A stretch of 64,000 bases of DNA from Eledone cirrhosa (lineage: Eukaryota), in NCBI GenBank assembly GCA_964016885.1, contig OZ024741.1, positions 228,408,001 to 228,472,000 on the forward strand, read 5' to 3'. Positions 1,609 through 58,097 of the stretch are shown piece after piece. Made by a program: the position numbers and the translations under genes. Each line of letters opens with the position of its first letter. Within the stretch, counting starts at the first letter, position 1. The notes under the pieces were generated by a model that did no database searches, was not told the DNA's origin, and was given only the letters and a program-made list of their open reading frames with translations.

Positions 1609-2677
1609 GATGTTTTTGCATTCTTGCAATAACATACACAACTGAATTCATTCGCCTGATATAGGGATTGCCTCCCTTGCCGATCCCCACGTGGCGTCAG
1701 TAACAGTCAGTCCTTGTATTAACATTGAACTAAAACCTGTTGAGAAAGTGGCTTCCTTGTTCAATAATCTTTCCAGAAGCCTAACATTATTTATGTAAGC
1801 GGACAGTATTTGATTTAGGAGCCGCAGAAACCCAAATGCTGGATTTTACCAACCTTCCAGGGGTACGGGTAAATTTTCAATCACAGATATTTTTTATTTG
1901 TTTGACCCGAATTACTTGATCGTTTTTTGGGCTATGCGAATGATTGTTTAACCATCGTCTCAGTGTGTTTGGCCTTTAACGTTTGTTATAGCTCTGGTTC
2001 ATCTGAATCATTGAGCACTTGCCACACATCTCGGAGGTTGTTTTTCGTTATTTCGTGGGCCGAAATGCGATTCTCGATAATTTATATTTATATTAATCTC
2101 CAAACTCTAGCTATTGACCAGTCAATTTTCTTGATTTTTAGTTGATTCTATTGACTGATGAATAGCTTGTTAATTTTAACCCTTCTGTTGAGAACTCTAT
2201 TCGATTTGTGATGTTTTTGCATTCTTGCAATAACATACACAACTGAATTCATTCGCCTGATATAGGGGTTGCCTCCCTTGCCGATCCCCACGTGGCGTCA
2301 GTAATAGTCAGTCCTTGTATTAACATTGTACTAAAACCTGTTGAGAAAGTGGCTTCCTTGTTCAATCATCTTTCCAGAAGCCTAACATTATTTATGTAAG
2401 CGGACAGTTTTTGATTTAGGAGCCGCAGAAACCCAAATGCTGGATTTTACCAACCTTCCAGGGGTCCGGGTAAATTTTCAATCACAGATATCTTTTATTT
2501 GTTTGACCCGAATTACTTGATCGTTTTTTTGGCTATGCGAATGATTGTTTAACCATCGTCTCAGTGTGTTTGGCCTTTACCGTTTGTTATAGCTCTGGTT
2601 CATCTGAATCATTGAGCACTTGCCACACATCTCGGAGGTTGTTTTTCGTTATTTCGTGGGCCGAAATGCGATTCTCG

Positions 2678-2680
<3 letters not shown>
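1604..2680. repeat. Partial tandem duplication (~601-bp unit, ~1.8 copies) between (TA)n tracts
   Basis: tttgtgatgtttttgcattc recurs at 1604 and 2205, and both copies run to ...attctcgataat. A related end occurs inverted at ~10725-10790. Confidence 0.85.
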
Positions 2681-2754
<74 letters not shown>

Positions 2755-2758
<4 letters not shown>

Positions 2759-5700
2759 CATATCCGCAAGGATACACAAAACAACTTCGACATAACCATG
2801 GTGTCTAGTGAATCGGCGCAGGTCACTGATTTGGTAGGTCTATATTTACTAAACGAAATCCATAAGGACCTTCCATACCTCAACGGTGGTTTGTACCGCG
2901 ACGATGCACTTCTCTTTATAGACTATAAAAAATTCAATATAGAAAGAACTAGAAAACTATTGCACAAGACTTTCAAAAACTATAACCTGAGTATCACCAT
3001 AGACAAAAACACTAAAAACGTTAACTTCCTAGATGCCACCCTCTACCTAGACTCTAGGATATATACACAATTCCCTAAACCTAACGAAAATCTGATTTAC
3101 GTAGATATCAAGTCTAACCACCCTAGATCAATATTAAACTCTATCTCTAAGGGAATATCCAATAGAATATCTAATCTATCTTATGACGAAAACATATTTA
3201 GCAAAAACTCGCAATATTATAATCAGGCATTAGCTAGATCAGGCCATAATAAGGAGATCGAGTTCCTACCTACAAAAACACATAGTTACAACATTATTTC
3301 GTACAATATGTCCATGCGGAAAAATAGTAATACGAATAACAACCACGCACACAGTAATACGAAGGATGGCAACAAACCTAACCCACACCACAGAAGTCAC
3401 CATAATACCATAAACGAAAGCATCTCACCAGTCATAAAAAACAAAAATAGAAGAAATAATACTTTTTTCAACCCTCCTTTCAATCTAAACGTCTCTACCA
3501 ACCTACCCAAGGCTTTCTTCTCACTCCTGGATTAAAACTTCCCATCTGGCCACAAGTACCATAGTCTTATAAACAAAAACATAATTAAAATCTCCTACTC
3601 TACCACGCCTAACATAGCATACCACATAGCTAGTAGCAATAAAAGAAAAATTAATACTTACTTCCAACAAACTAAAACACGACAGGGAGTAAACCTTCAA
3701 AATAACATTATATCTACTAACCCTGATATCAATAGTAATAATAGTAATACCACTAGTGTAAGCAATAACGCTGAGAGCGACAACCCCCATAGCCATAATG
3801 CAACAACTAACAAACAGACTTCTACACAACATAATAACCGGCAGGTTAACATCCAAAATAATTGTAACTGTAGATCTAATAGAACCTGCCCTTTAGATAA
3901 AAAATGCTTAATCAAGGATATCATATACTCATGCACCATCATAACTAGCAACTCTTCTGAAACCTATATAGGCTCTACTTCAAACTGTTTCAAAACCAGA
4001 TACAATTCGCACCTCCATTCTTTCAAAAAAACACAGTCTAGCCAACTCCACTTCACTATCTAGCGACATACACCATCTAAAAACTAAAAATAGATCTTAT
4101 ACACTTAAATGTAAGGCGGCATCGTACAAACCACCTAATAAATTTTGTAACCTCTGTCTACTAGAGACCCATACTATAATCTTCTCAAACCATAACCTCC
4201 TTAATAAAAAATCGGAAGTGTTCGCGTCGTGCCAGCACCGCTTCCGGCACTCCTCCCAAAACTTTAAACCCAATATATAGCAATGTCAGGCTTGAACCCA
4301 TCACCACTTCTAGCACTACACCTCAAGGGCACACCTTACACCTTACACCACAACTCCACACTCACTGATCCACCCTATCTTAACACAAATCGTTTCACCT
4401 ATCTATAACTTTATACACTAGAAATATCCTCATGTATACCTATTTTTAGTATAATTACTTTCAATTACTTATAATTATATAGTGATACAATACAGTCTAT
4501 GTAAACTTTAAATTCCAGATTCGACAATGGATTATTTGTGCAAATGTATTTCTATGTATGGAGTGCTATCATTGGATATATATAAATTTAATTTATTAAC
4601 ATAAGAGATCTGTATAACCTATATGTTGAGTGCAATGAATTGTGTATGAGTGGTATGTGAGTTATATATGCATGCATGGATGGATTAATGACATTGTAAG
4701 TGAGAGATGCTTTTTGGTCTGCCCTAGAGATGTATTTAGCTTTGCCGTGCAGTCAGCCATACGCTGCCCCAGAGCTTACCTGGGGTTATATAGACGTAGT
4801 TCTAATAGGTCCCCTGACAGGTACTGTGAGTAGACTACATTTGCAAAGATCTGTGATATAAAGATGTGGCTCTTTGTATGGAATATTCAGTTGTAGCACT
4901 CTATGATAGGGAGTAATCATCCTAATATAGATACCTTTAGTACTTCTTGATAGAGTAGACTGTAATTAAAAATAGGATACCTAAAATTGGAAACTGAATA
5001 TATAACCGTCTATATAAGGGACTCAATTGAGACACCTTATAATGTATGTTGGAATAATAAATTTAGTTATAGAAATCAGCTAGTTACCTCCCCTTACGCA
5101 TTAACTCCCCTTAATCACACACATACTTCCGGATAATAAACCGATGTAAATTCTCGCAACAGAAACAACTCGTTCTTTAAAATTGGATTAAAGAACACTG
5201 AGCCGCAGCAAGCTAAAATAAGTTAATTTAATGCATCAAACATCCAATACGGAATCATCGTTAATTATTTGAAGGATGTATAAACTATATATTACGTTTC
5301 TTGAATGTGAAAATGGTTGTGGATACAAAAACCATAACCTTCTTTTGCTTCTCCTTTATACTATTTTTCTGCACGCATACTTCTGTATCATATACAAAAA
5401 ATACCTTACCACTACAACCTCCATAATACTCTTACTTACCCGCTTTAAGTGCTTCTATTAAATGTAACACCCTGCCGCACAATAATCATATATAAATGAG
5501 ACACACGTGCATGCCCCACGCGTAACTAACGCATAAAATAACTAAAATAACTACTACATTTGACTAACAAACTATCCTCTTGCATTATCTATGTTAACTG
5601 CTGATTGTATTTTAATTTTGCTTTGATTTTGTTTTAATGTGATTTTGATTTTGAATTTGAATTGCTATACAGATAATATAATATATGTCACTCCACTGTA

Positions 5701-5995: not shown

Positions 5996-6066
5996 ATATA
6001 TTTTGACTGATGAAAACGTACTTAAACATCATAGTACCTTTGAAATATATATAATAAAATATATAT
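5996..6066 (+). ncRNA. Minimal type I hammerhead ribozyme motif (PLE pLTR fragment)
   Basis: CTGATGA at 6007-6013, stem II gtact/agtac, GAAA at 6042-6045, then TATATA-TA. Stem I is atatattttg/taaaatatat with an A-A mismatch at the junction. Confidence 0.6.
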
Positions 6067-6351
6067 CTTGATTATGAGTATATTTTCATTTGTTAACATT
6101 TTGAATAATATTAAAAACTCCAGAAAAACATCGGGTGCGTGCTTCAAATGTATTGTAATATTGTATTCGTTGAGTAATCAAGGGACCATACTAATCTTTG
6201 GTTATATATATATATATATATGGAAAGTTATATTTAAATTGTTGGGTTACAACTAGTAAATATTTATAACTGATATAAAAGCACTCGACAAGTATTTGGA
6301 GTATATTTACGATATTAAATAAATGGAAACTATATTTATAAAACCATATTT

Positions 6352-6415
6352 ATTTCATTATATATATTTCAGGGATATCATATTAACAATATGCTATGCC
6401 TTCCTCAGACAAAAT
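6352..6415 (-). ncRNA. Minimal type I hammerhead ribozyme motif
   Basis: Minus strand: attttgt-CTGAGGA-aggcatagcatattgttaatatgatatccct-GAAA-tatata-TA^atgaaat. Stem I attttgt/atgaaat pairs with G-U wobbles. Confidence 0.7.
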
Positions 6416-7524: not shown

Positions 7525-9435
7525 AGGAGGTTATAGTTCACTTGAAGCATTGTGTAATGAGGTATAAACGTTTGTATATGTATAATAAAGCCAAAACAAT
7601 GCAGGTATGGACATAGAATAAAGAATGCAAATGCAAAAGATATTGTTGACAATTAGTCTTTTACCTTAGATTTATTTAAATGTCCTTAATTTTCGAGATA
7701 ATATCTCTTCTTCGGAGGGAAGTAAAGCGGTTAAACCAGTGTTCTAAATAGCTTGCCATGTCATGCTGACAGGAAATGTATAGAGTATCTGTTCTATCTC
7801 TAATGTCAAAGACTTAAGGTTAGGTGGATAAAGAGTAGTCTCCGTTTAAAAGGTTTTTTTTTGTACATGCCTGTTTAAGTGTGTGGGAGAATGCATGAAG
7901 GTGTAAGTATGTGAGTGTGTGTGTGTGAGTGTGAGAAGATATGTCTATACGTAAATGTGGGGGATAGATGTTATCTCGTGTTAGAACTGATCTTTGTGTG
8001 TGTATGTGTGTGAGAGAGAATAAGTGGAGGTGTAAGCGTGTTGTGTGTGTGTGTGCGTGTGTGTGTGGACGCCAGTATAAAGTTCAGCATGGAACACCCC
8101 GATGACCGCGGATCCCTATCCATACTGGACTTCCAACTCAGGGTAACAGAGGAAGGCAACATCCACACCTGCTTCTATAAAAAAAGCCGCCAGCGGGACC
8201 TGTTCGTACATTTCAGATCGGCCCTCCCAGCCGGCGCTAAGTTCGGATACATAAGGAACGAACTAACACGTATCCGGAGCAAATGTACTGACACTAGAGA
8301 CCGAGACACACACACCACACATTTCCTGGAAGTACTCAAACTGAACGGATACACGACATCCACCACAAACCGTGCCAGAAAGAACAGAGGACACCACACC
8401 CGAGGCACTAACACTTTCTTCCTGAAGCTCCCACACTTCAGTGACGAAACAACAACAGCCATCCGCAGAGCTATCAGACGAGAGGGACTAGATATACAAC
8501 TGGCCCACTCAGGTCCTTCTCTACATGGACAGCTAACCAAAAGACACTCCACCAGACATGACAACTGCTGCAGGCTAGCCAACTACCCCATCAACGACAC
8601 AGACCTATGCCACCAGGCTTACGTCGTATACAGACTAGAGTGTGACAAATGCAGCAACTTCTACGTAGGTAGCACCACCAGACCACTCCACATAAGAATA
8701 AAAGAACACCTCAATACTAACGCTTCCTCATTTAAGAAACACATAGTTAAATGCAAAAACACCGACAAAACCATAACAGTTAGGATAGAAACTAAGGAAA
8801 GAAACCTCGGCAATCTTAGAATTAAGGAAGCACTAATTATAGACAAAACACAACCACCAATCAATAATAGACTAGAACTCAACACCCAATTTATAACTTC
8901 ATAGAGCTTCTAGCCCGATATTTACCCCCCCCCCCCACACACGCGCACACACACGCACACGACACGCTTACACCTCCACTTATTCTCTCTCACACACATA
9001 CACACACAAAGACCAGTTCTAACACGAGATAACATCTATCCCCCACATTTACGTATAGACATATCTTCTCACACTCACGCACACACACTCACATACTTAC
9101 ACCTTCATGCATTCTCCCACACACTTAAACAGGCATGTACAAAAAAAAAACCTTTTAAAGGGAGACTACTCTTTATCCACCTAACCTTAACTCTTTGACA
9201 TTAGAGATAGAACAGATACTCTATACCATTTCCTGTCAGCATGACTTGGCAAGCTATTTAGAACACTGGTTTAACCGCTTTACTTCCCTCCGAAGAAGAG
9301 ATATTATCTCCAAAATTAAGGACATTTAAATAAATTTAAGGTAAAAGACTAATTGTCAACAATATCTTTTGCATTTGCATTCTTTATTCTATGTCCATAC
9401 CTGCATTGTTTTGGCTTTATTATACATATACAAAC

Positions 9436-9635: not shown

Positions 9636-9699
9636 ATTTCATTATACATATTTCAAAGGCCACCAAGGCAAACTATGGTGCGCTTTCATCAGATAAAAT
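9636..9699 (-). ncRNA. Minimal type I hammerhead ribozyme motif
   Basis: Minus strand: attttat-CTGATGA-aagcgcacca..tggtggccttt-GAAA-tatgta-TA^atgaaat. It sits in a ~290-bp element (9500-9790) homologous to 6225-6510 and 57865-58140. Confidence 0.72.
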
Positions 9700-15419: not shown

Positions 15420-18400
15420 CGATTAACTGTATTAACAATAACAATAGGGTCGACTGTAACAACAACAACAATAGGATCACAGTAGCAACAAGAAGAGGAT
15501 CAACTTTAACAAAAAGGGGATCAATTATAACAACAAGAGGATCAACTATAACAACAAGAGGATCATCAATAACAACAAGAGGATCAACAACAATAACAAG
15601 ACGATCAACAATGACACCAAGGGCATCAACTATAACAACAAGAGGATCAACAACAATAACAAGAGGATCAACAATAACAACAAGAGGATCAACTATAACA
15701 ACCAGATGATCAACTATAACAACAACAGAAGATCAACTATAACAAGAAGGGGATGAACTATAACAAGAGGATCAACAATAAGAACAACAGGATCACAGTA
15801 TCAACAATAACGACAGGAGGATCAACTATAACAACAAGGGAATAACTATAACAACAAGAGGATCAACAATAACAAGAGGATCAACTATAGCAACAAGAGG
15901 ATCAACAATAACAAGAGGAACAACAATAACAACTACAAGAGGACCAACTATAACAACAAGAGGATCAACAATAACAACAAGTGGATCAACAATAATAACA
16001 AGAGGATCAGCTATAACAACAAGGGGATCAACTATAACAACAAGGGTATCAACAATAACACCTACAGGATCAACTATAACAACAAGAGGATCAACAATAA
16101 CAAATAGAGGATCAACAATAACAACAAGGGGATCAACTATAACAACGAGAGGATCAACTATAACAACAAGAGGATCAACAATAACAACAAGAGGATCAAC
16201 AATAACAACAAGGGAATGAACTATAACAAGAGGATCAACAATAACAACAGAAGATCACAGTAACATCAAGAAAAACAAGTGGATCAACTATAACAGCAAG
16301 AGGATGTACAATAACAACAAGAGAATCAACAATAACAACAAGAGGATCAACAATAACAACAACAGGATCAACTATAACAACAAGGGGATCAACAATAACA
16401 AAAACAGGATCAACTATAACAACAAGAGGATAAACAATAACAACACGAGGATCAAGTGTAACAACAAGGGGATCAACAATAACAACAAGAGGAACAACAA
16501 GAACAACTACAAGAGGATCAATTATAACAACAAGGGGATCAACTATAACAACAAGAGGATCAACAATAACAACAAGAAGATCAACAATAACAACAAGGGA
16601 ATGAACTATAATAAGAGGATCAACAATAACAACAGAAGATCACAGTAACAACAACAGCAACAAGTGGATCAACTGTCACAAAAAAGGTATCAACAATAAC
16701 GACAAGAGGATCAAATATAACAACAAGGTATCAACTATAACAACAAGAGGATCAACAATAACAACAAGAGGATCAACAATAACAACTAGAGGATCAACAA
16801 TAACAACAAGAGGATCAACTATAACAACAAGGGGATTAAACAATGACAACAAGAGGATCAACAATAACAACAACAGGATCAACTATAACAACAAGAGGAT
16901 CAACTATAACAACAAGAGGATCAAAAATAACAACACGAGGATCAACAATAACAACAAGAGGAACAACAAGAACAACTACATGAGGATCAATTATAACAAC
17001 AAGAAGATCAACAATAACAAAAACAGGATCAACTATAACAACAAGGGGATAAACAATAACAAGAGGATCAACTATAACAACAACAACAGGATCAACAATA
17101 ACAACAATAGGTTCAACTATTACAAAAAGGGGATCAACAATAACAAGAGGAACAACAAGAACAACTACAAGAGGATCAAATATAACAACAAGGGGATCAA
17201 CTATAACAACAAGAGTATCAACAATAACAACGAGAGGAACAACTATAACAACAAAAGGATCAACTATAACAACAGAAAGTCACAGTAACAACAACAACAA
17301 CAACAACAACAACAGGATCAACAATAACAACAACAGGATCAATTATAAGAACAAGAGGACCAAAAATAACAACAGGATCATCTATAACAACAAGACGATC
17401 AACAATAACAACAACAGGATCAACAATAACAAAAAGAGGATCAACAATAACAACAAAAGGATCAACTATAACAACAAGAGGATCAACAATAACAACAAGA
17501 GGATCAACAATAACAACAGAAAATCACAGTAACAACAACAACAACAAGTGGATCAACTATAACAAAATAGGTATCAACAATAACGACAAGAGGAACAACT
17601 ATAACAACAAGGTATCAACTATAACCATAAGTGGATCAACAATAACAATAAGATGATCAACAATAATAACAGGAGGATCAACAATAATAACAACAGGATC
17701 AACTATAACAACAAGGGGATCAACAATAACAACTACAGGATCAACAATAACAACTACAGGATCAACAATCACAACTACAGGATCAATTATAACAACAACA
17801 GTATCAAATATAACAACAAGAGGAACAACAATAACAACAAGAGGATCAACAACAACAAGGGGATCAACAATAACAACAAGAGGAACAAAAAGAACAAATA
17901 CAAGAGGATCAACTATAACAACAACAGGATCAACTATAACTAAAAGGGGATCAACAATAACAACAAGAGGATAAACTATAACAAAAAGAGGATCAACTAT
18001 AACAACAACAGGATCAACTATAACTAAAAGGGGATCAACAATAACAACAAGAGGATAAACTATAACAAAAAGAGGATCAACAATAACAACAACAGGATCA
18101 ACTATAACAACAAGGGGATCAACAATAATGACAAGAGGATCAACTATAACAAGAAGAGGATCAACAATAACAAAAACAGGATCAACTATAACAAAAAGGC
18201 GATCAACAGTAACAACAAGAGTATCAAATATAACAACAAGAAGATCGACAATAACAAAAAGAGAATCAACTATAACAACAAGGGGATCAACAATAATAAC
18301 AACGGGATCAACTATAACAACAAGAGTATCAACAATAACAACAAGAGGATCAACAATAACAACAAGAGGATCAACAATAACAACAATGGAATGAACTATA

Positions 18401-21400
18401 ACAAGAGGATCAACAATAACAACAGAAGATCACAGTAACAATAACAACAACAAGTGGATCAATTATAACAAAAAAAAGTATCAAAAATAACCACAAGAGG
18501 ATCAAATTTAACAACAAGGTATCAACTATAACAACAAAAGGATCAACAATAACAATAAGAGGATCAACAATAACAACAAGAGAATGAACAATAACAACAA
18601 CAGGATCAACTATAACAACAAGGGGAAAAACAATAACAACTAGAGGATCAACTATAACAACAAGAGGATCAAATCTAACAACAACATGATGAATTATAAC
18701 AACAAGAGGATCAACAATAACAACTACAAGATCAACTATAACAACAAGAGAATCAACTATAACAACAACATGATGAACTATAACAACAAGATGATCAACA
18801 ATAACAACTACAGGATCAAACTATAACAACAACAGGATCAACTATAACAGCAAGAGGATCAACTATAACAACACGATGATCAACTGTAAAAACAAGGGGA
18901 TCAACAATAACAAGAGGAACAACAAGAACAACGACAAGAGGATCAACTAATACAACGAGAAGACCAACAATAACAACAACAGGATCAACAATAACAACAA
19001 GAGGATGAAGAATAACAACAAAAGGATCAACTATAACAACAATAGGATCAATTATAACAACGAGAGGATCAACAATAACAACAAGAGGATCAACAATAAC
19101 AACAAGGGAATGAACTATAACGAGAGGATCAACAATAAAAACAGAAGATTACAGTAACAACAACAACGAGTGGATCAACTATAACAACAAGGTATCAACT
19201 ATAACAACAACAAGAGGATCAACAATAACAAAAAAATGATCTACAATAACAACAAGAGGATCAACAATAACAACAACAGGATCAAATATAACAACAAGAG
19301 GATCAACAATAACAACTACAGGATCAATTATAACAACAATAGGAACAACAATAACAACAAGAGGATCAACAATAACAATAAGGTGATCAACTATAACAAC
19401 AAGAGGATCAACAACAACGACAACAGGATCAACTATAACAAAAAGAGGATCAATTATAACTACAAGAGGATCAATTATAACTACAAGAGGATCAACTATA
19501 ACAACAAGAGGACCAACAATAACAACAAGGGGATCAACTATAACAATAAGGGGATCTACAATAACAAAAAGAGGATCAACTATAACAACAACAGGATCAA
19601 CAATAACAAAAAGGGGATCAACAATAACAACAAGAAGATCAACAACAACAACAAAAGTATTAACTATAATAACAAGAGGATCAGCTATAACAATAAGGGG
19701 ATCAACAATAACAACAAGAGGATCAACAATAACAACAAGAGGATCAACTATAACAACAAGAGGATCAACAATAACAACAACAGGAACGACTATAACAAGG
19801 AGATCAACAATAAAAACAAGAGGATCAACAATAACAACAAGGGGATCAACTATAACAACAAGAAGATCAACAACATTAATAATAGGATCAACAAAAACAA
19901 CAAGAGGATCAACTATAACAACCAGAGTATCAACTATAACAACAACAGAGGATCAACTATAACAAGGGAATGAACTATAACAAGAGGATCAACAATAACA
20001 ACAACAAGTGGATCAACTATAAGAAAAAAGGTATTAACAATAACGACAAGAGGATAAACTATAACAACAAGGGATCAACTTTAACAACAAGTGGAGCAAC
20101 AATAACAACAAGAGAATCAACAATAACAACAAGAGGATCAAAATAACAACAACATGATCAACTATAACAACAAGGGGATCAACAATAACAACTACAGGAT
20201 CAACTATAACAACGAGAGGATCAACTATAACAACAAGAGGAACATCAATAACACCAAGAGGATCAGCTATAACAACAAGGTGATCAACAATTACAACAAC
20301 AGAAGCAACTAGAAAAGCAAGGGGATCAACAATAACAACGCAGGATTAACTATAAGAAGATCACAATAACAACAAGAGGATCAACTATAACAACTAGGGG
20401 ATCAACTATAACAACAAGAGGATCAACTATAACATGGGGATAAACAATAACACCAAGAGGATCAACTATAACAAGAAGAAAATCAACAATAACAACAAGA
20501 ATATCAACAATAACAACAAGAGGATGAACTATAACAACAAAAGGATCAAAAATATGAACAAGAGGATCAACAATAAAAACAAGAGGATCAACAATAACAA
20601 CAACAAGGGGATCAAGAATAGCAACTACAGGATCAACTATAACAACAAGAGGATCAACTACAACAACAACACGATCAACTATAACAACAAGAGGATCAAC
20701 TACAACAACAACACGATCAACTATAACAACAAGAGGAACAAAAATAACAACAAGAGGATCAACAATAACAAGAGGATCAACTATAACAACAAGAGGATCA
20801 ACAATAACAACAAGGGAATGAACTATAACAAGAGGATCAACAATAAAAACAGAAGATGACAGTAACAACAACAACGACGAGTGGATCAACTATAACAACA
20901 AGGTATCAACTATAACAACAAGAGGATCAACAATAACAAAAAAGGATCAACAATAACAACAAGAGGATCAACAATAACAACAACAGGATCAACTATATCA
21001 ACAAGAGGATCAACAATAACAACTACAGGATCAATTATAACAACAATAGGAACAACAATAACAACAAGAGGATCAACAATAACAACAAGGGGATCAACTA
21101 TAACAACAAGAGGATCAACAACAACAACAACAACAGGATCAACTATAACAAAAAGAGGATCAATTATAACAACAAGAGGATCAACAATAACAACACGAGT
21201 ATCAACTGTGACAAGAAGGGGATCAACAACAACAACAAGAGGAACAACAAGAACAACTAGAAGAGGATCAACTATAACAACAAGAGGACCAACAATAACA
21301 ACAACGGGATCAACTATAACAACAAGGGGATCTACAGTAACAAAAAGAGGATCAACTATAACAAAAACAAGATCAACAATAACAAAAAGGGGATCAGCAA

Positions 21401-24400
21401 TAACAACAAGAGGAACAACAAGAACAACTACAAGAGTATCACGTATAATAACAACAGGATCAACAATAACAACAACAGGATCAACAATAACAACAAGAAG
21501 ATCAACAACAACAACAAAAGTATTAACTATAATAACAAGAGGATCAACTATAACAACAAGGGGATCAACAATAACAACAAGAGGATCAACAACAACAACA
21601 AGAGGATCAACTATAACAAGGAGATCAACAATAAAAACAAGAGGATCAACAATAACAACAAGGGGATCAACTATAACAACAAGAGGATCAACAACATTAA
21701 TAATAGGATCAACAAAAACAACAAGAGGATCAACTATAACAACCAGAGTATCAACTATAACAACAACAGAGGATCAACTATACAAGGGAATGAACTATAA
21801 CAAGAGGATCAACAATAACAACAACAAGTGGATCAACTATAAGAAAAAAGTTATCAACAATAACGACAAGAGGATCAAATATAACAACAAGGGATCAACT
21901 TTAACAACAAGTGGAGCAACAATAACAACAAGAGAATCAACAATAACAACAAGAGGATCAAAATAATAACAACATGATCAACTATAACAACAAGGGGATC
22001 AACAATAACAACTACAGGATCAACTATAACAACAAGAGGATCAACCATAACAACAAGAGGAACATCAATAACACCAAGAGGATCAACTATAACAACAAGG
22101 TCATCAACAATTACAACAACAGAAGCAACTAGAAAAACAAGGGGATCAACTATAACAACGCAGGATCAACAATAACAACAAGAGGATGAATTATAACAAC
22201 AAGAGGATCAAAAATATCAACAAGAGGATCAACAATATAAACAAGAGGATCAACAATAACAACAACAGGATCAAGTATAATAACAAGGGGATCAACAATA
22301 GCAACTACAGGATCAACTATAACAACAAGAGGATCAACTACAACAACAACACGATCAACTATAACAACAAGAGGATCAACTACAACAACAACACGATCAA
22401 CTACAACAACAAGAGGAACAAAAATAACAGGAGGATCAACAATAACAAGGGGATCAACTATAACAACAAGAGGATCAACAATAACAACACCGGGATCAAC
22501 TGTACAACAAGAGGAACAACAAGAACAACTACAAGAGGATCAACTATAACAACAAGAGGACCAACAATAACAACAAGGGGATCAAATAAAACAACAAGGG
22601 GATCAACAATAACAACAAGAGGATCAACTATAACAACAGGCTCAACAATAACAACAACAGGATCAACTATAACAAAACGGGGATCAGCAATAACAACAAG
22701 ATGAACAACAAAACAACTACAAGAGGATCAACTATAACAACAAGAGGATCAACAATAACAACAAGAGTATCAATAATAACAACAAAAGTATCAACTATAA
22801 CAACAAGAGGATCAACTATAACTACAAGAAGATCAACAATAACAAAAACAGGATCAACTATAACAACAAGAGGATAAACAATAACAACACGAGGATCAAG
22901 TGTAACAACCAGGGGATCAACAATAACAATAAGAGGAACAACAAGAACAACTACAAGAGGATCAATTATAACAACAAGGGGATCAACTATAACAACAAGA
23001 GGATCAACAATAACAACAAGAGGTAAAAAATAACAACAAGGGAATGAACTATAACAAGAGGATCAACAATAACAACAGAATATCACAGTAACAACAACAG
23101 CAACAAGTGGATCAACTGTCACAAAAAAGGTATCAACAATAACGACAAGAGGATCAAATATAACAACAAGGTATCAACTATAACAACAAGAGGATCAACA
23201 ATAACAACAAGAGGATCAACAATAACAACTAGAGGATCAACAATAACAACAAGAGGATCAACTATAACAACAAGCGGATCAACAATGACAACAAGAGGAT
23301 CAACAATAACAACAACAGGATCAACTATAACAACAAGAGGATCAACAATAACAAGAAGAGGATCAACTATAAAAACAAGGGGATCAACAATAACAACAAG
23401 AGGATCAACTACAACAACAAGGGGATCAACAATAACAACAAGAGAAACAACAATAACAACTACAAGAGGACCAACTCTAACAACAAGGAGATCAACAATA
23501 ACAACAAGAGGATCAACTCTAACAACACTATCAACAATAACAACAACAGGATCAACTATTCCAAAAAGGATATCAGCAATAAAAACAAGAGGAACAACAA
23601 GAGGATCAACAATAACAACAACAGGATCAACTATAACAACAAGGGAATCAACAATAACAACTACGGGATCAACTATAACAACTAGGGGATCAACTATAAC
23701 AACACGAGGATCAACTATAACATGGGGATCAAAAATAACAACAAGTGTTTCAACACTATCAACAAGAGGATCAACAATAACAACAAGAGAATCAACTATA
23801 ACAACAAGAGGATCAACTATAACAACAAGAGAATCAACAATACAACAAGAGGATCAACTATAACAACAAGAGGATCAACAATAAAAACAAGAGGATCAAC
23901 AATAACAACAAGGGAATGAACTATAACCAGAGGATCAACAATAACAACAGAATATCACAGTAACAACAACAACAAGTGGATCAACTATTACAAAAAAGGT
24001 ATCAACAATAACAACAACAAGAATCAAATATAACAACAAGGGGATCAACAATAACAAGTACAGAATCAACTATAACAAAAAGAGGATCAACTATAACAAC
24101 AACATGATGAAATATAACTACAAGAGGATCAATAATAACAACTACAGGATCAACTATAACAATAACAGGATCAACTATAACAACAAGAGGATCAACTATA
24201 ATAACAAAAGAATTAACAATAACAACACAAGGATCAACTGTAACAACAAGGGGACCAACAATAACAACAAGGGGATCAACTATAACAACAACAGGATCAA
24301 CAATATCAACAACAGGATGAACTATAACAAAAAGAGGATCAGCAATAACAACCAGAGGAACAACAAGAACAACTACAGGAGGATCAACTATAACAACAAG

Positions 24401-26830
24401 AGCATCAACAATAACAACAAGAGGATCAACAATAACAACAAGAGGATCAACTATAACAACAAGGGGATCAACAATAACAACAACAGGATCAACTATAACC
24501 ACAAGGGGATCAACAATAACAACAAGAGGAACAAGAAGACCAACTACAAGAGGATGAACAATAACAACAAGAGGACCAACAATAACAACAAGGGGATCAA
24601 CTATAACAACAAGGGATCAACAATAACAACAAGCGGATCAACAATAACAACAAGGGATCAACAATAACAACGAGAGGATCAACAATAACAACTCCAGGAT
24701 CAACTATAAAAACAACAGCATCAATTATAACACCAAGAGGAACAGCAAAAACAACAAGAAGATCAACAATAACAACAAGGGGATCAACTATAACGACAAG
24801 AGGATCAACAATAACAACAACATGATCAACTATAACAACAAGAGGATCAACTATAACTACAAGAGGATCAACAATAACAACACGAGGATCAAATGTAACA
24901 ACAAAGGGATCAACAATAACAACAAGAGGAACAACAAGAACAACTACAAGAGGATCAACTATAACAACAAGAGGACCAACAATAACAACAAGGGGATCAA
25001 CTATAACAACAAGGGATCAACAATAACAACAAGCGGATCAACAATAACAAAAAGGGTATAGCAATAACAACAAGAGGAACAACAAGAACAACTCCAACAA
25101 GAGGGGGTTTCAACTATAACAAGATGGGGATCAACTATAACAACAACATGATCAACTATAACAACAAGAGGATCAACTATAACAACAAGAGGATCAACAA
25201 TAACAACACGAGGATAAAGTGTAACAACAAGGGGATCAACAATAACAACAAGAGGTTCAACTATAACAACACGATCAACAATAACAACAACAGATCAACT
25301 ATTCCAAAAAGGATATCAGCAATAACAACAAGAGGAACAACAAGAACAACTACAAGAGGATCAACTATAACAACAAGAGGATCAACAATAAAAACAAGAG
25401 GATCAACTATAACAACAAGGGGATCAACAACAACATCACAGGATCAACTATTACAAGGAGATCAACAATAACAACAAGAGGATCAACAATAACAACTACA
25501 GAATCAACTATAACAACACGAGGATCAACTATAACAACAAGAGGATCAATAATAACAACACAAGGATCAACTGTAAGAACAAGGGGATCAGCAATAACAA
25601 CAAGAGGAACAACAAGAACAACTACAAAAGGATTAACTATAATAACAAGAGGATCAACAATAACAACAAGAGGATCAACAATAATAACAAGAGTATCAAC
25701 AATAACAACAAAAGGATCAACTATAACAACAAGAGCATCAACAATAACAACAAGAGGATCAACAATAACAACAAGAGGATCAACAATAACAACAAGAGGA
25801 TCAACTATAACAGCAAGGGTATAAACAATAACAACAAGAGGATCAACAATAAAAACAAGAGGATCAACTATAACAATAAGGGGATCAACTATAACAACAA
25901 GAGGATCAACAACAATAACAATAGGATCAACAATAACAACAAGAGGATCAACTCTAACAGCCAGAAGATCAACTATAACAACAACAGAGGATCAACTATA
26001 ACAACAAGGGAATGAACTATAACAAGAGGATCAACAATAACAACAACTAGTGGATCCACTATAACAAAAAAGGTATCAACAATAACGACAAGAGGATCAA
26101 CTATAACAAGAAGGGATCAACTATAACGACAACAGGATCAACTATAACAACAAGGGGATCAAAAATAACAACTACAGTATCAACTATAACAACAAGAGGA
26201 TCAACTATAAAAATAAGAGGAACATCAATAACAACAAGAGGATCAACAATAACAACAAGTGGATCAACTATAACAGCAATAGAATGAACAATAATAACAA
26301 GAGGATCAACTATAACAACGACAGGATCAACAATAACAACAAGAGGATCAACTATAACAACAAGGTGATCAACAATAACTACAACAGGATAAATTATAAC
26401 AACAAGGGGATCATCAATAACAACAAGAGAATCAACTATAACAACAAGAGGATCAACTATAACAACAAGAGAATAAAATACAACAAGAGGATTAACTATA
26501 ACAACACGGGGATCAACAATAAGAACACAGGATCAACTATAACAAGGAGATCAACAATAATAACAAGGGGATCAACTATAACGACTAGGGGATAAACTAT
26601 AACAACAAGAGGATCAACTATAACATGGGGATCAACAATAACAACAAGAGGATCAACTTTAACAAGAAGAGGATCAACAATAACAACAAGAGTATCAACA
26701 ATAACAACAAGAGGATGAAATATAACAACAAGAGGATCAACAATAACAACAAGAGGATCAATAATAACAACAAGAGGATCAACTATAACAACAAGAGGAT
26801 CAATAAAAAAACAACAAGGGAATCAACACT
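15420..26830. repeat. ~11.4-kb degenerate satellite, basic unit 21 bp ATAACAACAAGAGGATCAAC(A/T), with higher-order duplications
   Basis: Unit visible throughout; translations TRGSTIT / NNKRINY / DPLVVIV are frequently broken by frameshifts and stops. Confidence 0.95.
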
Positions 26831-27136
26831 AGCAACAATAACTAAAATCCCACAGAAACAAAGACAACAACAAAAGCAACAGCCTTAGGAACAGGAACAA
26901 AAACAATAAAAACGAGTTTTATCAGCAACAGCAACGATAGTAAAAAAAACACAATAACAACAACAACAACAACAACGAAGTAGGCCACACCGCACGTGTT
27001 CGCTCCGCTTGCTAGAAATAGCAGAAAAAACTCCCTCAAATCACATACACCATTCTCTTAAAATAAAGACACATTGGACAATGCGGGTTCCTGATATATA
27101 TTTTTAAAAAGACGGTTAGAATATCTTAGATTATAT

Positions 27137-37589: not shown

Positions 37590-37592
<3 letters not shown>
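36183..37592 (-). mobile_element. 3' end of a second Naiad-type PLE family
   Basis: The minus strand at ~37590-37500 encodes DQLLNK..ELVTACKHRLRR, homologous to the Naiad C-terminus LLNKKSEVFASCQHR. Homologous to 54735-56590; (TA)n on both sides. Confidence 0.7.
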
Positions 37593-37623
<31 letters not shown>

Positions 37624-37628
<5 letters not shown>

Positions 37629-38542
37629 CAGGTTTAGCAAATAAGAAAAAGTTTCAAAATAAAATTTAAAAAATTAACTTTACTCACTATGGTTACCGTT
37701 ACCGAATCGGTTTCGAGTCTCAAAAATAAACGGACAGCCCATACGGCATCCGTTGCAAAGATAAACTCTCGTCAGAAGGATCTTTTCACTCGGTGAATAT
37801 AAAATTCCCGAGTTCAAATTACAAACTGGCGCTATTCAAAATTGTTCCGAGATGAGAATAAATGATGTGGGAGCAATTCCTTCAAGTGCCGTGTGTAAAG
37901 ATAGAAGCAAAGGCAGGGAGGTCAGTTTACTACCACTATAACTAGCAGCAGTCAGAACGACCACATTTTTTCTCGACCAAGATGAGAATAATAATAAAGT
38001 ATATATATCCCTACACGCACAAAGCGCTTAGGGAAACATGTATTGTCCAATCATATGCCAAAGTGGTTCAATGGCAGGTTAATAAATTAACGAGCCAGAA
38101 CATATATAATCAGGTTTAGCAAATAAGAAAAAGTTTCAAAATAAATTTTAAAAAATTAACTTTACTCACTATGATTACCTTTACCGAATCGGTTTCGAGT
38201 CTCAAAAATAAACGGACAGCCCATACGGCATCCGTTGCAAAGATAAACTCTCGTCAGAAGAGTGAAAAGATCCTTCTGACGAGAGTTTATCTTTGCAACG
38301 GATGCCGTATGGACTGTCCGTTTATTTTTGAGACTCGAAACCGATTCGGTAAAGGTAATCATAGTGAGTAAAGTTAATTTTTTAAAATTTATTTTGAAAC
38401 TTTTTCTTATTTGCTAAACCTGATTATATATGTTCTGGCTCGTTAATTTATTAACCTGCCATTGAACCACTTTGGCATATGATTGGACAATACATGTTTC
38501 CCTAAGCGCTTTCTGCGTGTAGGGATATATATACTTTATTAT
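37624..38542. mobile_element. HHR-bearing element: 482-bp partial tandem (minus strand) plus fold-back inverted copy
   Basis: The block at 37624 repeats at 38106; ~37994-38260 is the reverse complement of 38273-~38540; three HHR copies; (TA)n flanks. Confidence 0.9.
38269..38360 (+). ncRNA. Canonical type I hammerhead ribozyme with complete stem III
   Basis: gat-cctt-CTGACGA(38276-38282)-gagttt..acgga..tccgt..gagactc-GAAA(38337-38340)-CCGattCGG-TA^aagg-ta-atc. Predicted cleavage after 38351. Minus-strand copies at 37692-37782 and 38173-38260. Confidence 0.88.
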
Positions 38543-38555
38543 ATATATATATATA

Positions 38556-39159
38556 TTAAAGAGTTAAACAAGATTCAAAGAATGAGTTTTACAGTAGATT
38601 GGAAGCACTCTACAGTAAAAAATTATTTTCCAGAGTTATTAATATTAAAATACAAATATTAATAAAATAGATGTTCTTTTGATCAATTAAATTTTACTAT
38701 ACATATTTCAGAGGTACAACAGTACGTCCTCATCAGACAAAATATAATGATGCATGACATACCCTGAGATGTTAAATGGTTAAGATTTAATCAAGGTAGT
38801 GAGTAACCTAAGAGAAAACTCAACATTTATACCCTAATAATGAGAAAATGTGAAAACGTAATAAATTCAATAGAGGATGTATGAGTAAGAAAAACGTTGC
38901 TTAATGTGACAGCTATAGAGATTTTAAAATGTGGGATACTACAATTTATTACGTTTTCACATTTTCTCATTATTAGGGTAAAAATGTTGAGTTTTCTCTT
39001 AGATTAATCACTACCTTGATTAAATCTTAACCATTTAACATCTCAGCGTATGTCATGTATCATTATATTTTGTCTGATGAGGACGTACTGTTGTACCTCT
39101 GAAATATGTATAATAAAATTTAATTGATCAAAAGAACATCTATTTTATTAATATTTGTA

Positions 39160-39166
<7 letters not shown>
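38556..39166 (-). mobile_element. PLE pLTR fold-back element (~225-bp arms + tail) with two HHRs
   Basis: 38641-38867 is inverted at 38943-39166; the tail 38556-38640 is homologous to 43370-43465. Confidence 0.85.
39067..39119 (+). ncRNA. Minimal type I HHR (inverted copy at 38691-38743, minus)
   Basis: attttgt-CTGATGA-ggacgtac-tgtt-gtacctct-GAAA-tatgta-TA^ataaaat. Confidence 0.78.
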
Positions 39167-39199
<33 letters not shown>

Positions 39200-39200
<1 letters not shown>

Positions 39201-40768
39201 TCAGGTTTGAGGTTCACCACTGGATAGAGCTGGTCAATTCCGTATGGTCAATCTCAATGTAATAATATGGAGAGTACCCAACGTAAAGCAGTTCAACCGT
39301 CTTTGTTTTTGTAGTTGGTGGTGCTATTACGGGGTTAAATATTATAATGAAATGACAGGAGGCTGGATTTGTGTAAATCCTTGAAAGGTTTATTATACTA
39401 TGATCATTTCAATGACCGGTTTCCGTATGAATCCGGTGATATCATCAGGTATTCCAAATATAATAAGTGAATGTAATAGATAAAATCCATGGGGCTGAAA
39501 ATCTAAGACCCGCGGACGACCGCCATCCAGCATCTTCCACCTTTGCCGGTCGCCCTCGAGTGACGTGGTTAAAGCTTACAGTGTGCTACTACCGGTCAAA
39601 TAAAGGAAAACAGAAAGGGATAGGAACATAAGTCAGCGTTAATATCATGCCACAAGAAAAAAGAAAGAAAGAAAGAAAGAAAGAAAGAAGAGAGAAGAAG
39701 GGGGAAGAAAGAAAAAGAGAAGCCAGGGTTAATGTCAGAAGAAAGACAGAAAGAAAGAGGAGGAAAGGTCGGTATTACAGTCAGCCCAGGAATGTCGCGA
39801 AAACATTTTTATTCTAAGGGTCCCGTATCTTAACAACTACTGCCGGTCAAATATAGGCAAACAAAAAGGGGGAGGAAGATAAGTCAGCGTTAATATCATG
39901 CCACAAGGAGAAAGACAGAAAGAAGGGAGTAGAGAAGGAAGAAAAGGAAGAAGAAAAGTCAGGGTTGATGGCTACAAGAAAAAAAGATAGAAAGAAAGAG
40001 GAAGAAAGGTCGATATTAATGTCAGACTACAGTCAGGCCAGGAATGGCGCGAAAAAAATATTTTCAAAGGGACCCGTATCTTAGCAGAGGTAAATATAGT
40101 GGGGGTCAGTATGTTATAATGTGTGAGCAGAAGATTGGAACGTTACATTTTTGTTTAGACTTATAGGATGAAGTTAAAAAATTAATATTTAATATTAACA
40201 TTATAAAATTAATGAAATTAGAAAATTTAAAGTTAAACAGTTTAACATTTTTAAGGTTGCGAGGTTTAAGCAAAGAAAGAGTCTTTTATAAAGACATTTT
40301 ATTATAGAGTAAAGATTATGTCTTTGTTTAGCCGTCAAACAGCATGCGGCGACTACAAGCTTGTAGTCGCCGCATGCTGTTTGACAGCTTCATTAACCCT
40401 GGCTTCTCTTCTTCTTCCTTTCCCCTTCTTCTCTCTTCTTTCTTTCTTTCTTTTTTCTTGTGGCATGATATTAACGCTGACTTATGTTCCTATCCCTTTC
40501 TGTTTTCCTTTATTTGACCGGTAGTAGCACACTAAGCTTTAGCCACGTCACTCGAGGGCGACCGGCAAAGGTGGAAGATGCTGGATGGCGGTCACCCTCG
40601 GGTCTTTGATTTTCAGCCCCATGGATTTTATCTATTACATTCACTTATTATATTTCGAATACCTGATGATATCACCGGATTCATACGGAACCCGGTCATT
40701 GAAATGATCATAGTATAATAAACCTTTCAAGGATTTACACAAGTCCAGCCTCTTGTCATTTCATTATA
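39200..40768 (-). mobile_element. PLE pLTR element with ~390-bp inverted arms and two HHRs
   Basis: 39343-39734 is inverted at 40391-40768; tail at 39200-39340; (TA)n flanks. Confidence 0.85.
40659..40716 (+). ncRNA. Minimal type I HHR with palindromic TGATCA stem III (inverted copy at 39395-39452)
   Basis: atac-CTGATGA-tatcaccgg..ccggtcatt-GAAA-TGATCA-TA^gtat. Confidence 0.8.
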
Positions 40769-40782
40769 TATATATATATTAT

Positions 40783-43461
40783 TATTAATTCAAAATATTA
40801 ACAAATATAGACATTTGTGTGATCAAATATATTTTATTATACATATATTTCAGAGGTACTGAGCTATTTACAACAGTACGCCCTCATCAGATAAAATAAG
40901 ATGATGCTTGACATACCTTGACTATGTTGATGCTTAACATTCAGTCATGGCAGTGAATAAGTTAGGACAAAACTCAATATTTATATACCTTAAGATTGAG
41001 ACATGAACAAATTACATATAACACAGAGAGTGCGTGTGAGAAAGCTTATAAAGTTACATAATAATATATAACTACTAATATAATATAAACCTACATAACT
41101 GTTAGAAATTTAAATAATTTAAATAAAGTAATATATGGATAACATATTATTGTAGAAAGAGGAAGTGAAAGACAGAGAGAGAAACAGATGAGGAGAGAGA
41201 GACTGACTAGAAAGATAGAATATGTTATGCACGAAAGCAAAAGAAAATTGATTAAGGATAGAGAGAAGAGGAGAAAGAAAATAAGTTTTATAGTCTAAAA
41301 CACAGGGAGGGAGACTTGTATTGTCGTAGATAAACAGCGTATAATTAGATGATGTAAAAATATATATATAAATATATATTTGGGCATAGCTTGGTGAATG
41401 AATAATTTCGAATCGTTAAATCATTTAGAAATAGTCAATCAATCAAAATATCAAATATATATCTGGGTGTAGTTATATGACGGTTTATTTTCGAATCCCT
41501 AAGTTAATAAGAAATAGTCAATTAATCAAATATATATATCCCGGCGCATCCGGATGACCGTTAAATTTCGAATCTTTATGTTAGTTAGAAATACTGAATT
41601 AATCTAATGGCATAAGATTTCTGACTATAAAATTTATAAGGGTTTATATTATAGTATAATATCATATTTAAAGTATTTGCAAACATGAGAAAGAAAAGAC
41701 TTAAGATTTTCTTCATTCCGAAGGTAATCGAAATTAAATTATATTAAAAAATTTATATTAAAAAAATTTGATATTAAAAATAATCATTATATAATTTAGA
41801 AAATAATTACAATTATAAAGTTAAAATTAGAATGCTCTTAAGTATCCAAACGCCATATAAGTGTACTAATTTATACACATTTATACAAATTTATACAAAT
41901 TTATACAAATTTATACATGTTTGCAAACACCTTAAATATGATATTATACTATAATATAAATCCTTAACATTTTTTTTGTATTTTTAAATTATAAAGCTTA
42001 TATATTTGACACTTATATGGTCTCGTAAACCATTCATTTATTTATTTTGAATCCGTGTTTTATGATTCAAGAAGTTTGATTTGTATATTTATAGTATATA
42101 TGTATTACATGATCCTAGTTGAATAATTTTTTTAATATAATACTTGACGTAAAACTTTATTTTTAACACTATTAACAGTAATTATATATATTATATATAA
42201 CTGACTAATATCGTCTTAAACTTTAAACAATGTACTCTTTGTATAAATTTAGACAAATGCGTATATCTAGTTTAATAATATCCTTTTCAAGTACACTTAT
42301 ATGGCCTTTGGATACTTAAGAGCATTCTAATTTTAACTTTATAATTGTAATTATTTTCTAAATTATATAATGATTATTTTTAATATCAAATTTTTTTAAT
42401 ATAAATTTTTTAATATAATTTAATTTCGATTACCTTCGGAATGAAGAAAATCTTAAGTCTTTTCTTTCTCATGTTTGCAAATACTTTAAATATGATATTA
42501 TACTATAATATAAACCCTTATAAATTTTATAGTCAGAAATCTTATGCCATTAGATTAATTCACTATTTCTAACTAACATAAAGATTCGAAATTTAACGGT
42601 CATCCGGATGCGCTGGGATATATATATTTGATTAATTGACTATTTCTAATTAACTTAAGGATTCGAAAATAAACCGTCATATAACTACACCCAGATATAT
42701 ATTTGATATTTTGATTGATTGACTATTTCTAAATGATTTAACGATTCGAAATTATTCATTCACCAAGCTATGCCCAAATATATATTTATATATATATTTT
42801 TACATCATCTAATTATACGCTGTTTATCTACGACAATACAAGTCTCCCTCCCTATGTTTTAGACTATAAAACTTATTTTCTTTCTCCTCTTCTCTCTATC
42901 CTTAATCAATTGTTCTTTTGCTTTCGTGCATAACACATTCTATCTTTCTAGTCAGTCTCTCTCTCCTCATCTGTTCTCTCTCTGTCTTTCACTTCCTCTT
43001 TCTACAATAATATGTTATCCATATATTACTTTATTTAAATTATTTAAATTTCTAACAGTTTTGTAGGTTTATATTATATTAGTAGTTATATATTATTATA
43101 TCTTTATAAGCTTTTCACACGCACTCTCTGTGTTATATATAATTTGTTCATGTCTCAATCTTAAGGTATATAAATATTGAGTTTTGTCCTAACTTATTCA
43201 CTGCCATGACTGAATGTTAACCATCAACATAGTCAAGGTATGTCAAGCATCATCTTATTTTATCTGATGAGGATGTACTGTTGTAAATAGTTCACTACCT
43301 CGGAAATATGTATAATAAAATATACTTGATCACACGAATGTCTATATTTGTTAATATTTTGAATTAATATTAATAACTCCGGAAAACCATTACTGTGGAG
43401 TGGTTCTAATCTATTGTACAACTTTATTCATTGATTTATTCATTGAACCTGGTTTAACCTT

Positions 43462-58034: not shown

Positions 58035-58097
58035 ATTTTGTCTGATGAAGGCATACCATAATTTAATTTGGTATCCCTGAAATATGTATAATGAAAT
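58035..58097 (+). ncRNA. Minimal type I HHR (family of 6352 and 9636)
   Basis: attttgt-CTGATGA(58042)-aggcatacca..tggtatccct-GAAA(58079)-tatgta-TA^atgaaat. Confidence 0.78.

Follow-up and report, generated by a model that had tools for sequence, protein, structure and literature searches.

The window, the whole 64,000-nt stretch of Eledone cirrhosa DNA analysed here, contains a 5'-truncated insertion whose two arms are joined head to head (5' to 5') at 38259/38260, with 1-nt microhomology. Its boundaries lie near 37620 and 38542, within (TA)n runs at both outer ends: the (AT)n target microsatellite at 37592-37626 marks the left 3' end, and the (TA)n target microsatellite at 38539-38555 the right one. 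The left arm (37620-38260, minus strand) is a 5'-truncated tandem of ~1.3 units terminating at the main priming site; 637 nt of it are mapped (as L001, q328-482 plus q1-482, where unit positions q run along window 37624-38105 on the minus strand and the cut falls between q406 and q407). This arm includes a hammerhead copy that retains its leader and has an A-to-C change in stem I (37692-37789, minus; predicted cut between 37700 and 37699), an internal copy of the second AT-rich priming site (37991-38005, minus; unit position ~106-115), the minus-arm copy of a conserved bulged hairpin, GUUC-UGGC...GCCA-UU-GAAC-CAC (38063-38101, minus), and a further hammerhead copy (38174-38260, minus; predicted cut between 38182 and 38181) that is truncated at the inversion junction and has no pseudoknot leader. 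The right arm (38260-38542, plus strand, 283 nt) is likewise 5'-truncated, terminates at the second priming site and holds a 'tail' of ~110 nt. It carries a type I hammerhead motif (38272-38355, plus), the main priming site at which most insertions of the family meet (TA)n (..GAUUAUAUAU; 38420-38431, plus) and, directly 3' of that site, the conserved bulged hairpin (38432-38470, plus), a candidate RT-binding element.

The two arms form an inverted repeat of 270 bp (37991-38260/38273-38542; 99%), and the minus-strand copies, 482 bp apart, share 159 nt at 98%. Since the arms differ at only 2 of 270 positions and the minus copies at 3 of 159, the insertion is presumably young. An earlier sequence-only reading of this DNA had described two minus-strand copies at this spacing; the spacing holds, and both copies are impaired, one being without its leader and the other altered in stem I. 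Its statement that the element lacks an ORF is borne out, as no ORF of at least 120 aa overlaps the element in the window. In folding of a read-through transcript of the locus, the hammerhead lies 122-127 kcal/mol above the minimum for the two junction copies and 6.3 kcal/mol above it for the third copy, the one with the stem I mismatch. The inverted repeat is thus predicted to hide two of the three ribozymes by >120 kcal/mol in such a transcript, and the head-to-head locus is probably a dead end.

A second, unrelated hammerhead family is present in the window at 38637-38867 (minus) and 38943-39173 (plus), 40765-41000 (minus) and 43160-43380 (plus), with further sites at ~6000-6410, 9640-9690 and 58040-58090. 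Its members have a weak palindromic stem III (GAAA-UAUGUA-UA), a stem I of 7-8 bp and a stem II of 20-36 nt, occur as inverted pairs and end at (TA)n; they are likely the pseudo-LTRs (pLTRs) of another Penelope-like element (PLE) family. Remnants of 5'-truncated PLE ORFs with a C-terminal GIY-YIG, belonging to two families, are located at 2507-4063 (plus; Pfam E 0.0066; broken by a stop at 3533-3535) and 8014-8904 (plus; Pfam E 2.3e-6). The window also contains an 11.4-kb array of ~540 copies of a 21-bp AAC-rich unit (15458-26838) and large nested inverted repeats at 39343-40768, with a perfect palindrome near 40334-40385 at its centre, and at ~41000-43200, the other fold-back being centred near 42050.

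The hammerhead and its predicted pseudoknot

The type I hammerhead that the sequence-only reading had placed at 38269-38360 stands in sequence and coordinates, and its core is matched family-wide. On the plus strand it consists of CCUU (38272-38275), CUGACGA (38276-38282), a 54-nt stem II insert (38283-38336), GAAA (38337-38340), CCG-AUU-CGG (38341-38349), UA (38350-38351) and AAGG (38352-38355), which is the type I order CUGAnGA...GAAA...UH. The core spans 38276-38351, with a predicted cut after 38351; stem I is formed by 38272-38275/38352-38355, the proximal and distal parts of stem II by 38283-38288/38331-38336 and 38297-38302/38317-38322, and stem III by 38340-38343/38347-38350. A 22-nt stretch of the core has 683 exact matches in the genome, and a pattern for the intact core with an insert of 35-65 nt has 964; both reversed controls gave 0, so the motif is not a product of chance. 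The Rfam hammerhead model, proposed earlier as a check, yielded no match at the gathering score or at E<=10, a failure probably caused by the long stem II insert; the other Rfam matches were fold-back miRNA artefacts.

Among 106 distinct copies, pairs 1-4 of stem I are formed in 103, 103, 98 and 100, while 53 copies form pair 5 and a single one forms pair 6; pairs 1-6 of proximal stem II are formed in 98-106; the corresponding counts for stem III are partly fixed by the search pattern. Judged from these copies, stem I is 4-5 bp long. The bulged stem I suggested earlier, closed by a distal gat/auc pairing, cannot be upheld: it rests on a rare variant (among 97 aligned segments, 3 have T and 93 have C), and the pair is not conserved. 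The bases of the proposed bulge would be better explained as a strand of the pseudoknot described below. In 12 copies picked by hand to span the subfamilies, six pairs change on both sides, a score reached in 0 of 500 shuffles under a control that ignores relatedness, and stems I and II covary between subfamilies. Variation between subfamilies affects 1 of 66 sites in the hairpin, the core and stems I and III taken together, as compared with 108 of 416 in the remainder of the unit (p=3.6e-7).

Stem III forms a full palindrome in several subfamilies and in the sister families introduced below (CCGAUCGG, CCGUACGG, CCGCGCGG, CUAAUUAG and CUGUACAG), and for the stem III of the window folding gives a possible dimer helix of -14.3 kcal/mol; cleavage as a dimer is for these reasons also possible. 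For an isolated 38260-38370 transcript the hammerhead fold lies 0.7-2.0 kcal/mol above the minimum in a model that does not include the pseudoknot, and monomer cleavage of this transcript is plausible on such energies. Over 74 copies, nearest-neighbour folding, in which both the pseudoknot and the core fall outside the model, assigned the hammerhead P>0.1 in none, with a median of 4.4 kcal/mol above the minimum. The 5' ends of insertions show only a weak excess at the cut site (3-4 of 92 against ~1 expected), which was set aside as evidence. We regard it as quite likely that the ribozyme is active in the source copies.

The tip of stem II (window 38305-38312) is CC-GUAA-GG or CC-GCAA-GG, a GNRA tetraloop, in many copies of the family, here called A, and GUAU takes its place in the subfamily of the window. 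Some folds pair the stem II loop with the cut site in a 'decoy' helix; it was not accepted as a conserved switch, as subfamily variants break it and its median probability is 0.01.

Family A and three sister families, B, C and D, all show complementarity between the leader 5' of stem I and the 5' strand of the internal loop in stem II. In the window, the leader strand GAAAAGAU (38264-38271, plus) would pair with the loop strand AUCUUUGC (38289-38296, plus) with one A.G mismatch, which occurs in 7 of 12 aligned copies, the subfamily of the window included. The leader/loop pairs are GAAAAGA/UCUUUUC and GAGAAG/CUUCUC in family A, UGAGAAU/AUUCUCG and UGAAAAG/CUUUUCA in family B, and GGAAAAU/AUUUUCC and AAUGGAAA/UUUCCAUU in families C and D, where 17 of 18 hammerheads show the complementarity and the remaining one is without its leader, which was lost at an inversion. 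The mean length of the longest Watson-Crick helix in 121 distinct combinations is 5.64 pairs with the own leader against 4.90+/-0.09 with permuted leaders (0 of 200), in a test that is not phylogeny-aware and on sequences that are purine- and pyrimidine-biased; the within-family means for own and permuted leaders are 5.75 vs 5.53 in A and 5.37 vs 5.06 in B. Only one pair of the pseudoknot changes on both sides in the 12-copy alignment. Based on this complementarity and on compensation across the families, we consider a pseudoknot between the leader and the stem II loop probable. A hammerhead of this form in animal retrozymes is unreported in the titles and abstract openings of the papers listed; the supplement of PMC7229834 may show similar invertebrate hammerheads, in which case the form would be less new.

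Copies, insertion ends and sister families

The unit of family A is a 482-485 bp repeat without ORF that is present in more than 1,000 dispersed copies. In the 3-Gb genome, a search at the DNA level turned up 2,693 candidates, and 40 of these were scored; exact 3' junctions between the unit end (q482) and (TA)n number 1,235, and those of one q115 variant 96, with 0 in the reversed control for the former and 0 in the control for the latter. The counts of 683, 964 and 1,235 are lower bounds on copy number. The repeat is also seen, along with its variants, in three contig runs that belong to a single study. The unit has a GC content of 37%, and its circular fold is more stable than that of shuffled sequences (z -3.9 and -3.5, 25 shuffles each). 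The sequence-only reading had left the choice between a retrozyme-like family and the pLTR of an undescribed PLE. Its first half agrees with our data, since the repeat is a short non-coding tandem unit of low GC with one type I hammerhead each and no internal region, as in non-LTR retrozymes; its second half finds no support, as the repeats are ORF-less tandems of 457-556 bp and no copy in the loci fetched forms the terminal repeat of an ORF. The genome-wide search that it suggested, for the unit and a linked RT ORF, recovered the unit in high copy, and no cognate ORF in the loci fetched.

The 3' ends of 76 contiguous runs from 53 loci, counted after seven overlapping loci had been dropped, fall at ~q482 in 47 cases, at q104-120 in 23 and elsewhere in 6; the share of q482 is favoured by the choice of 25 of the 53 loci for a full-length match. 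Insertions thus end at two AT-rich internal sites and not at the ribozyme cut. Nearly all 3' ends enter (TA)n through AT-rich microhomology, and this location masks any target-site duplication, so that none longer than 4 bp can be discerned. The 5' ends are scattered: on the 5' sides of 92 insertions we found TA in 41, an inverted copy in 30 and other sequence in 21. In some divergent subfamilies the 5' ends are underestimated with the reference used. A cluster of 5' ends at q375-378, where distal stem II has its 3' base (6 of 92 against ~1 expected), possibly reflects stalling of the RT at that hairpin; its nominal p of 0.0006 is not robust over the ~120 windows scanned. The combination of 5' truncation, partial tandems, inverted 5' copies, a tail and a bias for microsatellites is that of a PLE-mobilised element, and we hold with high confidence that the family is a non-autonomous one.

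Families B, C and D were found in the flanks of family A copies. Their units of ~457-556 bp are unlike in sequence and of the same design, with a long stem II, the predicted pseudoknot and the hairpin as in A, and across the families no ORF lies between the tandem repeats. The unit is ~520-556 bp long in family B, which forms arrays of up to 4-5 units, ~457-467 bp in C and ~470-525 bp in D (L116:3695-4441, L152, L148, L102:3339-4050, L072:5400-5830, L302 and L310). In all families the hairpin, GUUC-UG.. ..CA-(UU/UA)-GAAC, stands directly 3' of the main insertion end, and it covaries across them, with inner pairs UGGC/GCCA in A, UGCA/UGCA in B, UGGUA/UGCCA in C and UGGUA/UACCA in D; insertions of C and D end just 5' of the hairpin or ~100-110 nt 3' of it. 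Patterns for the hairpin have 3,513, 5,029 and 1,852 matches in the genome, in overlapping sets. By analogy with an anole PLE, for which reverse transcription begins internally at two sites and needs RNA to ~55 nt 3' (PMC11167929), the hairpin may serve as a protein-binding element.

Further hammerhead families with stem II inserts of 33-58 nt were noted at L162:1715-1800 (plus), L232, L306, L094:278-341 (minus), L034/L041/L098 and L056. At L162, the hammerhead and family B meet head to head with no TA spacer in between, possibly as an insertion from two templates.

Template, candidate helper and alternative explanations

The template of copying was evaluated on the first 92 of the 1,235 junctions listed, all from contig C1. 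From the cut downstream to the main priming site the distance is 76 nt, so that copies of a linear monomer, once cleaved, could be no longer than 76 nt. The insertions have a median length of 330 nt; 81 of the 92 were scored as crossing the cut site (~80 after removal of L262, an alignment artefact), 24 exceed one unit, 12 reach at least 639 nt (for example L005, L013 and L072) and 2 exceed two units. With ~80 copies across the cut and 24 longer than one unit, the template was either circular (ligated) or uncleaved. Copies within one insertion differ at 8.7% of 76 diagnostic sites, as compared with 47% for copies from separate loci (75 inverted and 89 direct pairs; removal of overlaps left 172 of 230 loci), and the sharing of subfamily alleles within an insertion fits a single template lineage, as expected.

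An uncleaved linear multimer, or an RT that jumps between templates, is the strongest competitor of a circular template; the ribozyme would then be slow, protein-assisted or dispensable for copying. The ~80 of 92 cDNAs that cross the cut fit uncleaved RNA equally well, unprocessed RNA predominates as the substrate of the anole PLE, whose insertion is unaffected by hammerhead mutants (PMC11167929), the hammerhead is the minor state in folding (P>0.1 in 0 of 74 copies), and only one of nine Xenopus dimers was cleaved in vitro (10.64898/2026.07.22.740005). Against this, the core, both strands of the pseudoknot and stems I and III hardly vary across subfamilies or else covary, circles are made by related retrozymes of coral, mussel and axolotl (PMC7229834), and linear copying with 5' truncation should be unable to lengthen arrays, yet insertions have a median length of 330 nt and in some cases are longer than two units. 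We judge the uncleaved or template-jumping route unlikely but by no means negligible. The analogy with retrozymes and the argument from array length favour circles, and we lean towards a circular template rather than an uncleaved multimer; the insertion ends suggest that a PLE enzyme likely copies the repeat from circular RNA.

A possible source of this enzyme is an autonomous Neptune-type PLE family in the same genome, which has (TA)n ends, a tail and inversions like those of family A. Two of its copies on contig C3, L285 and L286, have near-full-length open frames of 1,238-1,257 aa. These frames contain a long insert rich in asparagine, which recalls the N-rich inserts that Penelope elements of rotifers have. 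The 1,238-aa frame of L286 contains the motifs YVDD, CIDKKCITC and YIGET, has no Pfam match and gives a weak GIY-YIG match in PDB (E 0.29). The label Neptune-type follows the CX2-5CXXC linker as described in PMC8557442 and is qualified by the presence of such a motif in Nematis as well. The Neptune pLTR has a minimal hammerhead; neither sequence homology to the unit nor the hairpin motif was found in it, and 9-mer words common to the unit and Neptune pLTRs were treated as chance.

Of 77 non-TA flanks listed, with duplicates and self-flanks included, four independent ones join Neptune-type sequence. At L014, family A stands head to head with a 5'-truncated Neptune-type copy, with 6-nt microhomology and (TA)n at both outer ends; at L158, the usual 3' end of family B is fused to a truncated Neptune-type ORF with 4-nt microhomology; at L028, a Neptune tail is fused to family A; and at L053, family A is followed by ~19 nt of filler and a Neptune-type ORF. 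The flank of L029 joins another PLE family, and that of L151 is ambiguous. Given the 5.8% share of Neptune sequence in flanking DNA, four such junctions are not a significant excess (P ~0.06-0.4). Their geometry suggests co-insertion; deletion between neighbours is a possible origin as well. We give a Neptune-type helper about even odds.

If, alternatively, the unit were the pseudo-LTR of an autonomous PLE, its ORF-bearing copies would lie outside our sample. The tail, the inversion and the targeting of (TA)n are PLE signatures (PMC8557442, PMC3846280), 24 of 57 Xenopus retrozyme families match known transposons, with 21 of 22 matches being to PLEs, at their termini (10.64898/2026.07.22.740005), and the genome matches listed are the top or first ones, mostly from contig C1. 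In the loci fetched, however, no copy of families A-D is placed as the terminal repeat of an RT and GIY-YIG ORF, the few contacts with ORFs involve 5'-truncated ORFs of families that have their own unrelated pLTRs, and the units close on themselves at 457-556 bp. Searches for an autonomous parent through paired copies 1.5-10 kb apart, divergent subfamilies and hairpin patterns gave only further non-coding families, and a profile and descriptor search over the loci gave only non-coding families among the matches listed. An identity with a Naiad pLTR, raised by the 'HHR_half_core' description, was set aside and kept as a lead, since no ORF with an N-terminal EN is linked to any fetched copy. Judged from the loci fetched, an autonomous element with this unit as its pLTR is improbable. 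A minisatellite with a vestigial ribozyme that spread as DNA, whether by gene conversion, by helitron-like copying or through repair, would suit the tandem occurrence, and local tandem amplification has been proposed for vertebrate retrozymes (10.64898/2026.07.22.740005), but the polarity (3' ends fixed, 5' ends ragged), arrays of non-integer length, microhomology at the head-to-head inversions, junctions with PLE ORFs and selection on RNA structure make it very improbable.

The family is most likely a non-coding tandem hammerhead retroposon, a non-LTR retrozyme mobilised in trans by a PLE, and we assign this overall explanation a probability of about 0.7. In the proposed mechanism, transcripts of arrays with two ribozymes would self-cleave, with the leader-to-stem II pseudoknot standing in for the usual contact between loops 1 and 2, and a host ligase would circularise the cleaved monomer. 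A PLE protein with RT and GIY-YIG domains, most likely of the Neptune type, would attach close to the conserved hairpin and nick (TA)n, with priming on the UAUAU that adjoins the hairpin or else at the second site, ~110 nt downstream; the RT would then copy around the circle, and priming off both nicked strands would yield the head-to-head form seen in the window. A wider version of this model is tentative: at least four retrozyme families with several thousand copies might form a superfamily, in which a pseudoknotted long-stem-II hammerhead is combined with a hairpin landing pad that places a Neptune-type RT by UAUAU, and a rolling form of target-primed reverse transcription would copy circles into (TA)n. 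If true, this superfamily would provide the cis-element and the helper that animal retrozymes have so far lacked.

Comparison with known systems

Animal retrozymes make abundant circular RNAs, for which the copying enzyme and its priming have only been hypothesised. The hairpin by the priming site, the two priming sites, the junction-crossing cDNAs and the PLE chimeras provide handles on the question of the helper and, together with the existing in vitro PLE system (PMC11167929), allow the model to be tested directly. As Rfam does not detect this form of the hammerhead, families of the kind may go unnoticed in other genomes. The variant also bears on the 'half-core' motifs with 35-50 nt spacers described for Naiad PLEs (PMC8557442).

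With the metazoan non-LTR retrozymes described in PMC7229834 and 10.64898/2026.07.22.740005, the family shares short non-coding tandem units with one type I hammerhead each, a GC content below 50%, a self-paired unit and coexistence with PLEs. Its unit of 482-485 bp (457-556 bp in the sister families) compares with 150-450 bp in PMC7229834 and falls within the 51-972 bp of 10.64898/2026.07.22.740005. Where non-LTR retrozymes are described as having a 4-bp stem with loop-loop contacts, stem II here has an insert of 48-55 nt that includes an internal loop and the predicted pseudoknot, and the arrays here are short and without discernible target duplication, whereas those of metazoan non-LTR retrozymes are described as long. 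A conserved hairpin is present here at the priming site, in contrast to the retrozyme repeats that PMC7761336 describes as having no conserved motif that points to a helper.

The pLTRs and minimal hammerheads of EN+ PLEs (PMC4209133, PMC8557442, PMC11167929, PMC3846280) resemble the family in 5' truncation, partial tandems, the inverted 5' copy, two internal 3' ends defining a tail, AT-rich or (TA)n targets, and a short helix I (4-5 bp) with a longer helix II; the inverted ends and tails match those of PMC3846280. The differences are the absence of an ORF, a helix III of 3-4 bp where those hammerheads have none, a tail of ~100-110 nt instead of 30-40, and 3' ends with target microhomology, whereas the anole element starts at a non-homologous site (PMC11167929). 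Non-autonomous PLEs of Chlamys such as MRC1 (PMC8557442) are likewise derivatives with head-to-tail multicopy insertions; they resemble their autonomous partners at the 3' end and are mostly without hammerheads, whereas no such homology was found here. Pseudoknots are predicted for ~40% of hammerhead representatives and for all three types, and in them, as predicted here, base pairing that joins stem I to stem II replaces the loop-loop contacts (PMC3088659); the partner strand here would be one strand of the internal loop of a long stem II in an animal retroposon, and constructs of type II are among those tested in PMC3088659.

Most likely, then, the element works like a non-autonomous PLE, as has been proposed in 10.64898/2026.07.22.740005, PMC7761336 and PMC4209133. 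Relative to these systems, the long stem II with its predicted pseudoknot, the conserved hairpin at the priming site and the end statistics appear, from the sequence comparisons made here, to be new.
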